From the NCBI RefSeq assembly GCF_003334255.1, contig NZ_QOWU01000106.1: a DNA stretch of 4,925 nucleotides. One strand, written 5' to 3'. Shown piece by piece: positions 1 to 4,925 of the stretch. A program made the position numbers and the translations under genes. This DNA is from Escherichia coli. Its GTDB lineage: Bacteria; Pseudomonadota; Gammaproteobacteria; Enterobacterales; Enterobacteriaceae. The notes beneath the pieces are model-generated. The model was given only the letters and a program-made list of their open reading frames with translations. It did no database searches and was not told the DNA's origin. Position 1 is the first letter of the stretch; every line of letters starts with the position of its first letter.

Positions 1-244
1 CCGGATGCCGCCAGGCAGCCGGGAGCCGAAGGTGCGCCCGGCAGACAGGACAACACTGCAGTAGTCAGAATCAGAGCAGGAAGAAAAAGAGAATAATCAC
101 AGGGAAGGTGATGTGATTTCTGACAGGCCATAACCAGAGAAGGCGGGGGAAAAGAACGGGCGCCGCAGGCGCGCGTTCATCCCCGTTCCTGAAGGGAAAC
201 GACCTTCCTGAAGTCAGGTTGTTCATGCCCGTACAACATCAGCA

Positions 245-280
245 AGGAGAAAGGGGCTACCGGCGAACCAGCAGCCCCTT
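245..280 (-). terminator. Second hairpin downstream of hok (8-bp stem, 14-nt loop) followed by a U/C-rich tract; candidate 3'-terminal structure of full-length hok mRNA
   Basis: Plus-strand aaggggct (251-258) and agcccctt (273-280) are perfect reverse complements. On the minus strand the hairpin is followed by UCUCCUUGCU. Confidence 0.3.
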
Positions 281-316
281 TATAAAGGCGCTTCAGTAGT
301 CAGACCAGCATCAGTC

Positions 317-341
317 CTGAAAAGGCGGGCCTGCGCCCGCC
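317..341 (-). terminator. GC-rich hairpin plus U-tract about 10 nt downstream of the hok stop; hok mRNA 3' structural element or terminator
   Basis: Minus-strand stem GGCGGGC/GCCCGCC (plus coordinates 324-330 pairing with 335-341, 4-nt loop) followed on the minus strand by UUUU (complement of 320-323). Confidence 0.4.
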
Positions 342-4827: not shown

Positions 4828-4925
4828 GATGTGTCTCCTTCTGTTGATGTTTTCAGCCCCCATCATCTGTTGAGTTTCGGGAGCCGCGGTTTTGACGTTT
4901 TGCGGGGACCTGCTCTTTGTTCCCT

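Follow-up and report, generated by a model that had tools for sequence, protein, structure and literature searches.

During conjugation, the single-stranded DNA (ssDNA) promoters of conjugative plasmids time the expression of anti-defence genes and the conversion of the incoming single strand into duplex, and in the recent literature these promoters are treated as hairpins of about 330-350 nt (PMC9849209, PMC11541004, PMC12672017, bioRxiv 10.64898/2026.01.09.698686). Two of them, Frpo1 upstream of ygeA and Frpo2 upstream of ssb, are 92% identical and lie about 5 kb apart with the toxin-antitoxin module flm/hok between them (PMC9849209). The hok mRNA is itself well described: it occurs as molecules of 441, 398 and 361 nt, the full-length RNA being blunt-ended and its 3' trimming being blocked by a stem-loop after 39 nt (PMC1635323), and its two ends are joined in the fold-back model by pairing of the tac and fbi (fold-back inhibition) elements (PMC9841398). 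Here, we analyze the place where these two systems meet in Escherichia coli contig NZ_QOWU01000106.1, namely positions 1-320 of a stretch of 4,925 nt (hereafter the window, its plus strand being the one displayed and negative positions lying to its left), which a reading of the sequence alone had singled out as an uncharacterised non-coding region downstream of hok carrying direct repeats, a purine-rich tract and a palindromic GC block.

The window represents the leading region of an F-like conjugative plasmid. Since traM and oriT lie to its left in related complete plasmids and all its genes are on the minus strand, the plus strand is the one transferred and also serves as template for the leading genes. 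Positions 1-350 are 100% identical in more than 1400 plasmid records, and a second allele (90-95% identical) is present in about 3200 others, the F-type allele being the commoner one and the one carried by most related plasmids. Positions 1-320 are not one element; they are where two known modules meet, one being the tail of the hok mRNA and the other the flank of Frpo1. The best overall explanation, which we consider likely, is a composite made of the hok tail (242-350), a spacer (about 36-241) and the end of a structured element (1-33). As originally flagged, the region is largely ordinary, comprising the 3' end of a known mRNA, a spacer that plasmids can dispense with, and repeats as well as open reading frames (ORFs) that found no support. 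What is unexpected is that its first 33 bases and, by association, its purine tract belong to a widely conserved and covarying element of the transferred strand.

Positions 1-33 (plus strand) are, judging by identity, by the number of copies and by covariation, the 3' end of an element of about 135 nt, termed here block B (about -100 to 33), which flanks class-1 Frpo/ssi promoters and most of which falls outside the window. The part inside comprises its last hairpin, P5 (1-22, plus strand; CCGG-A-TGCC-GCCA-GGCA-G-CCGG), found both in the ssDNA fold of the single sequence and in the alignment, and the conserved tail motif GGGAGCCGAAGG (21-32, plus strand). The window-type flank (-129 to about 35) is 82% identical in one Enterobacter copy, 68-76% identical in four Klebsiella copies (one of them partial) and 95-97% identical beside ssi2 and ssi3 of ColIb-P9. 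A scan for the motif GCCCGAAACC-N(3-12)-GGTTCGGCGGAG in a single genome of each species returned 46 copies at 39 loci, which represent at least 15 enterobacterial genera; one hairpin motif is fixed by this search pattern and carries no information. Alignment of the 29 non-redundant copies revealed a structure closed by one helix, with two short helices that are invariant and two hairpins that vary, amounting to 26 pairs, 97.7% of which are formed, with 88 double-change cells distributed over 11 pairs. When the pairing was slid along the alignment as a control, only 27-52% of positions paired, and none of 500 shuffles matched the paired percentage, the double-change cells, the further pair types or the covariation score, while the number of pairs with a double change was matched by 6 of 500. 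Within P5 itself, three of the five pairs covary (e.g., CG:17/UA:9/UG:3 and GC:17/AU:6/GU:4/CG:2). Folding the whole 700-nt flank as a single ssDNA gave an uninformative global structure. These identities, boundaries, pairings and covariations are direct observations. Near-identical copies of the E. coli-type flank were also met in a Streptomyces contig (L020), a 259-bp Bacillus contig (L039) and a metagenome-assembled Erysipelotrichaceae genome (L031), which most likely reflects contamination with plasmid DNA from enterobacteria.

Four lines of evidence point to the plus strand as the structured one. The pairs of the alignment include 19 G-T cells and 4 A-C cells on this strand, so that an RNA of minus sense would carry mismatches where the plus strand has wobble pairs; the loops of the variable hairpin P4 are T-rich on it; the alignment fold is more stable on it, most clearly with DNA parameters (-60.6 vs -50.5); and at the new loci all 76 of 76 matches to leading-region proteins (ssb, psiA, psiB, ParB-like, ArdA, KlcA-like, DUF932 and others) lie opposite to it. 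Because the leading genes are always on the opposite strand, the structured strand is everywhere the transferred strand. It could instead be argued that block B acts as RNA, either as the minus-sense structured 3' end of the mRNA of the upstream operon or as a plus-sense antisense RNA, given that most covarying pairs are Watson-Crick on both strands and that in several genera the element starts within about 25 nt of the stop codon of the upstream gene. We regard this as improbable in view of the G-T bias, the P4 loops and the fold energies just described, to which it may be added that no credible plus-strand promoter was seen and that the element has no match in Rfam. Indeed, a scan for the sigma-70 consensus, which is not a search for hairpin promoters in the flank element, found no promoter-like site in 1-320, and at E <= 1 sok was the sole Rfam family matched in the window, nothing credible appearing at E <= 10 in positions 1-1300 of the p1658/97 locus (L001). 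A TTGACC beside the flank element, considered as the -35 box of a plus-sense RNA, was rejected on three grounds, namely the want of a usable -10, a spacing of about 15 nt and its absence from the E. coli/ColIb type. The original prediction had proposed single-strand structural sites on the plus strand, and the end of a covarying element at 1-33 bears this out. At several loci, the element lies about 490 nt upstream of ssb, leaving space for a Frpo-sized hairpin between the two. Simple matching of Frpo apex motifs near the new loci was too coarse to establish adjacency in the more distant genera, and the placement of these loci was judged instead by the distance to ssb and by gene orientation.

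As regards the promoters themselves, the window covers almost exactly the DNA between the two of them, from the flank of Frpo1 to the start of Frpo2, since the mapping of F ssiD (sequence taken from the supplement of PMC11541004) agrees with the arrangement described for Frpo1 and Frpo2 (PMC9849209). F ssiD maps to positions -543 to -194, and its start also matches 4857-4925, which correspond to the first 70 nt of the Frpo2 (ssiD-like) hairpin upstream of ssb and are 94% identical to F ssiD. This ssiD is reportedly the original Frpo of Masai and Arai. Positions 1-320 have no match to the ssiD/ColIb ssi hairpin of about 330-350 nt, and F ssiE, tried as a further candidate, maps between the SLT and DUF932 genes instead of in the window. 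The exact -35 and -10 of Frpo could not be located from sequence. Short ORFs within the Frpo1 hairpin, of 38 and 90 aa, bear the annotation 'single-stranded DNA-binding protein' (L015:656-772 and L005:832-1104); lying inside a long inverted repeat, these are likely annotation artefacts.

With regard to the class-1 Frpo/ssi family (F ssiD = Frpo1 = ssp1a; Frpo2 = ssp1b; ColIb-P9 ssi1-3), positions 1-90 form part of the repeat unit that bears Frpo1 and Frpo2. They are duplicated upstream of ssb in the same plasmids and close, on the right, a repeat of some 640 bp present in two to three copies per leading region. In p1658/97, positions 1-77 are the right end of a 250-nt tract (-173 to 77) which, by local BLAST and alignment, is 100% identical to the Frpo2 flank of the same plasmid, weaker repeat homology continuing to about 90; as the two hairpins of this plasmid are only about 87% identical, we read the tract, on the strength of these alignments, as probably a recent gene conversion copied from the Frpo2 flank. 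In F and most other plasmids, -95 to 41 is replaced by a different and shorter flank ('type A'), which resembles a shortened and diverged structured element (homology judged by eye) with a GCCCGCC-AGG-GCGGAG hairpin, CACGAC, a CCCC-GCCA-GGGG hairpin and CCGGAAAAG, and which was seen at L004:11400-11590 (F, Frpo1 flank), L004:6100-6200 and L003:17270-17350. Upstream of Frpo2, p1658/97 has a hexanucleotide microsatellite, (CAGTAG)n (L001:6010-6110), at the equivalent of the place just right of position 90. In the IncI1 plasmid ColIb-P9, the flank (L016:12338-12505 and 19371-19529) is 95-97% identical to that of the present IncF plasmid, and BLAST of the ColIb against the IncF Frpo/ssi hairpins gives only short stretches of 74-80% identity, which suggests that the flank has been recently exchanged between plasmid groups or is under stronger constraint than the hairpins.

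Like Frpo, the flank element is carried by the transferred strand, is rich in hairpins, occurs only in leading regions and keeps a constant orientation to the leading genes. It differs from Frpo in forming a domain of its own, located right of the hairpin (upstream with respect to transcription), and in having no -35/-10 mimic (no hairpin-promoter search having been made); moreover, it lies outside the 326-351-nt Frpo/ssi sequences of PMC11541004. The PriA sites of phiX174 type, the primase sites of G4 type and ssoA of rolling-circle plasmids are likewise conserved clusters of single-strand hairpins with unpaired motifs and variable, covarying stems, a likeness which is architectural only. Many copies of block B carry a TAGCG motif, which we take to resemble the CS-6 TAGCGT of ssoA. 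All that we assert is that the transferred single strand is structured. As to possible roles, block B may be a barrier delaying the conversion of the promoter to duplex, as has been shown for ssp2 (bioRxiv 10.64898/2026.01.09.698686), a boundary for SSB, or a priming site.

The purine-rich tract appears as a recurrent companion of this structured element. The stretch originally named, 81-110, is 83% purine, and a composition scan extends the tract to 66-117 on the transferred (plus) strand, at a threshold of at least 80% purine per 40 nt. The transferred strand of plasmid L003 has only three such tracts in 20 kb and that of plasmid F has two, every one of them lying on the right-hand side of a Frpo copy. 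Across all copies, 38% of block B elements have a purine tract within 300 nt, vs 2% of control windows (odds ratio 30). Tracts of (GAAGAG)n type, 98-100% purine on the transferred strand, occupy the same relative position as 66-117 at L004:5995-6095 (F, Frpo2 flank) and L003:17356-17438, and in F a 118-aa 'hypothetical protein' is annotated opposite the tract. We tentatively propose, as a serious possibility rather than as the expected outcome, that Frpo/ssi is a larger unit of the transferred strand, in which the promoter hairpin is joined by a separate functional multi-helix element (about 135 nt) and, often, by an unstructured tract rich in purines (here 66-117). In such a unit, block B might restrain complementary-strand synthesis or the spreading of SSB/RecA, so that the promoter hairpin would remain single-stranded and active, or it might be an assembly site for priming. 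Several points call for caution. In Klebsiella, the purine tract accompanies two of four copies and is missing beside the other two, and the ssi copies of ColIb-P9 have no purine tract in that position; the counts of flank elements and tracts are not independent events, because many copies are paralogues and relatives. Block B and the purine tract find no mention in the Frpo/ssi literature compared, which sets the promoters at 326-351 nt; the original papers (Masai & Arai 1997; Bates 1999; Nasim 2004), which lie outside that literature, may describe the flank element.

At the other end of the region, 242-320 is not uncharacterised, because its folds, the published isoform lengths and the homology limit all match the 3' end of the hok mRNA. 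The original description as lying downstream of hok was thus right, and its suggestion that the region may hold the 3' end of the hok transcript is confirmed by the fbi element and the terminator hairpin found within 242-320, the isoform lengths fitting as well (PMC1635323); it is the word 'uncharacterised' that does not apply to this part. On the minus strand, the module comprises the hok leader and sok (507-683; Rfam RF01794, 88.9 bits vs a gathering score of 59), the hok coding sequence (351-509, 52 aa, the Hok family toxin being annotated at 351-476 and the longer ORF reaching 509) and the 3' untranslated region (UTR) of the primary transcript (242-350, delimited by the published isoform lengths and the homology limit). 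The fbi element AAGCGCC (287-293), invariant in 9 of 9 sequences, pairs with the tac element GGCGCUU (676-682) at the 5' end of the mRNA. This pairing was obtained in the minimum-free-energy folds of minus-strand RNAs running from 683 down to 286 or 240, with z = -8.4 for the 398-nt RNA, whose centroid fold has it too, and z = -9.8 for the 444-nt RNA.

Beyond the hok stop codon, the minus-sense RNA forms two hairpins. Hairpin 1 (324-343, or 321-343 with its UUUU) has 8 pairs, is 100% paired and shows one compensatory change. Hairpin 2, the hok terminator (250-281), has 14 bp and a UUCG loop and is followed by UUUCUCCUU; its pairing is 100% over 9 sequences, one pair being compensatory. Altogether, the 22 pairs form in all nine plasmids, including those of Klebsiella and Enterobacter, two of them with compensatory changes, and several changes in hairpin 2 preserve pairing only as G-U on the minus-strand RNA. 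In sequence, hairpin 2 has what is expected of an intrinsic terminator, a GC-rich stem and loop with a run of U directly after it in the transcript, and its pairs have the support of covariation. With the +1 at 682, the isoforms of 441, 398 and 361 nt are predicted to end at 242, just past hairpin 2, at 285, just past fbi, and at 322, at the foot of hairpin 1, which matches the hairpin depicted as the roadblock to 3' trimming that gives the 361-nt mature mRNA (legends of Figure 1 and Figure 4, PMC1635323). Homology of the hok module in pO157 and in the Klebsiella and Enterobacter plasmids stops between 215 and 245. Compared with hok/sok (flmA/flmB) of R1 and F, 242-350 thus has all expected parts in the same order and at the same distances, namely the tac-fbi pairing, the GC hairpin with U4 (the 361-nt stop) and a second hairpin fitting the 441-nt primary transcript, and here too the sok RNA and the Hok coding sequence adjoin. 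Nothing substantial differs, the present allele only being without 2 nt beside fbi that are present in the F-type allele. It would follow the published course: the UUCG hairpin at 250-281 would terminate the 441-nt primary transcript, pairing of the 5' and 3' ends through tac and fbi would silence the full-length mRNA, and slow 3' trimming, halted at hairpin 1, would activate it.

Further upstream in the sense of transcription, the minus-strand genes of the window are ssb (4827-4300), a DUF905 gene, a ParB-like gene, psiB (1939-1505) and psiA (1508-789), followed by sok/hok. The psiA gene is annotated as frameshifted in L015, and in two otherwise close plasmids IS150 sits just upstream of hok, in the leader/sok region (L002:6707-8076 and L003:7797-9166).

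Between the two modules lies a spacer (about 36-241) which only E. coli-type F plasmids have; Klebsiella and Enterobacter plasmids carry both the hok module and the Frpo flank, but between them a different stretch with two genes in it. The possibility that the spacer is a remnant of those genes was discarded, tblastn against the window giving no similarity. In individual plasmids its homology ends near an insertion sequence: IS26 adjoins an end at about 129 and IS66 one at about 65, and where the end is at 58, IS21 is found about 180 bp further left. In pO157 the spacer is replaced from 215 leftward, hok being intact in every plasmid with an interrupted or replaced spacer. The original prediction had taken variability among related plasmids as the mark of a non-functional spacer; the middle part (36-241), which behaves as a dispensable and lineage-restricted spacer, comes close to this. 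Relative to F, the identity is 89.4% over 42-249 as a whole, about 95% in 91-185 and 86% in 186-249, the hok coding sequence, the hok 3' UTR and psiA being 97-99% identical. The divergence is thus about 5% in 91-185 and about 14-16% in 42-90 and 186-249.

The spacer contains two features that may stop transcription. The palindromic GC block predicted at 157-176, cgggcgccgcaggcgcgcgt with its ggcgcc core, is present, but the palindrome is better read, from the terminator scan, as part of a minus-strand hairpin followed by T4. This hairpin 3 (150-178 with its UUUU, minus strand), with a stem made of 154-158/174-178 and 160-164/168-172 and a mismatch at 159/173, has the hairpin and U run that the terminator scan requires of an intrinsic terminator, and may serve as a back-up terminator of the intrinsic kind. 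None of its paired positions varies among the nine plasmids compared, the sole variable site inside being 173, at the mismatch. Downstream in the RNA, the minus-sense transcript of 39-169, in which the purine tract is read from its other strand, is C-rich and G-poor and by its composition resembles a Rho loading site, a candidate Rho-type (rut) site: the C/G ratio over 78-nt windows peaks at 2.89 at 79-156, the maximum of the 4925-nt window, the median being 0.84. Elsewhere, a C/G of at least 2 over 78 nt is reached only at 1972-2054 (the ParB-like/psiB junction) and 534-613 (the hok leader). Hairpin 3 with its U4, followed by about 130 nt of C-rich, G-poor RNA past the last gene, recalls the combined intrinsic and Rho-dependent terminators found between operons, although hairpin 3 differs from the usual ones in following an already good terminator (hairpin 2) and in its short U tract. 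A back-up intrinsic stop at hairpin 3 and then a Rho-type stop in the C-rich tract would keep read-through from Frpo2, psi and hok from melting the Frpo1 hairpin, which lies about 200 nt left of the window and must remain folded to work as a promoter.

Is the spacer then simply neutral filler, its hairpin with T4, C-rich tract and purine richness being leftovers of microsatellite decay and recombination? We hold this for unlikely, though for the most substantial of the alternatives. It accords with a stretch limited to a single lineage, interrupted by insertion sequences and missing in the Klebsiella and Enterobacter relatives, with (CAGTAG)n and (GAAGAG)n microsatellites at equivalent places, and with a divergence similar to that of nearby synonymous sites. 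It does not readily explain why purine tracts are about 30-fold enriched beside the flank element with no other such tract in 15-20 kb of two plasmids, nor why the pairs of hairpin 3 are invariant though the flanking 186-249 has diverged by 14%. Still, three considerations count against assigning the spacer a function. Neutral evolution has to be reckoned with because its divergence falls within the 3-19% observed at third codon positions of the neighbouring genes; hairpin 3 is without support from covariation because its paired positions never vary; and it is from sequence features that a terminator or insulator role is deduced. The composite junction nevertheless stays our preferred explanation, the insulating role of its spacer being the more conjectural part of it.

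The remaining features named by the original prediction (repeats, purine tract, GC block and 27-aa ORF) were all located where it had placed them, but the direct repeats and the small ORFs are incidental. The 11-mer cagtagtcaga (59-69 and 294-304, plus strand) and the 9-mer ttcctgaag (186-194 and 205-213, plus strand) could be imagined as iteron-like protein-binding sites, and an exact repeat of at least 11 nt is indeed unexpected by chance, occurring in 1.45% of 2000 dinucleotide-preserving shuffles. One of at least 9 nt occurs in 26% of them, that is at chance level, and the conservation of the repeats among homologous plasmids that was to be looked for did not hold, neither being retained in the F-type allele: copy 1 of the 11-mer has a substitution, copy 2 a 2-nt insertion, and both copies of the 9-mer are altered. 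Their lack of conservation makes the repeats implausible as binding sites. The second copy of the 11-mer moreover lies inside the hok 3' UTR beside fbi, where it is constrained by RNA pairing, and CAGTAG, the core of the 11-mer, is the unit of the microsatellite at the equivalent place upstream of Frpo2. We thus attach hardly any weight to the iteron explanation. The same is true of the idea that the region encodes a small protein, which would have to be a coding sequence (CDS) of 76 aa or an ORF of 51 or 27 aa. The absence of ORFs of 60 aa or more holds inside the window, but RefSeq annotates a 231-bp minus-strand CDS of 76 aa (WP_071587244/WP_001426396) that starts at 131 and runs past the left edge, and this CDS is annotated in thousands of RefSeq plasmids. 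We regard it as spurious, because its frame has no codon periodicity in 29 homologues (entropy 0.53/0.61/0.58) and another ORF, with an N-terminus translated from (CAGTAG)n microsatellite, repeats its C-terminal 62 residues; its sequence is furthermore replaced in the F-type allele (tblastn). The 27-aa minus-strand ORF, located at 97-180 and preceded by AGGA 6 nt upstream of its start, had already been called unsupported, and it loses its ATG in F (A179T), just as the 51-aa ORF is frameshifted in the F-type allele. NCBIfam returned nothing for the 76-, 51-, 27- and 26-aa ORFs, so that a coding function appears most improbable. RefSeq ORFs across the (CAGTAG)n of Frpo2 translate to poly-Leu or (Ala-Thr)n and are probably artefacts.

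About one third of the region is therefore the textbook 3' end of the hok mRNA, for which the value of this analysis lies mainly in tidying up, and the RefSeq 'hypothetical protein' annotated here is probably an artefact repeated in thousands of plasmid records. The specialist interest resides in the flank of Frpo1, where a second, strongly covarying structure of the transferred strand lies beside the ssDNA promoters in constant orientation. Any role of this structure is inferred. If the structure is real, past deletions and reporter constructs may unknowingly have included or omitted a functional part of the promoters, and block B would be a new and testable cis element in the spread of resistance plasmids.

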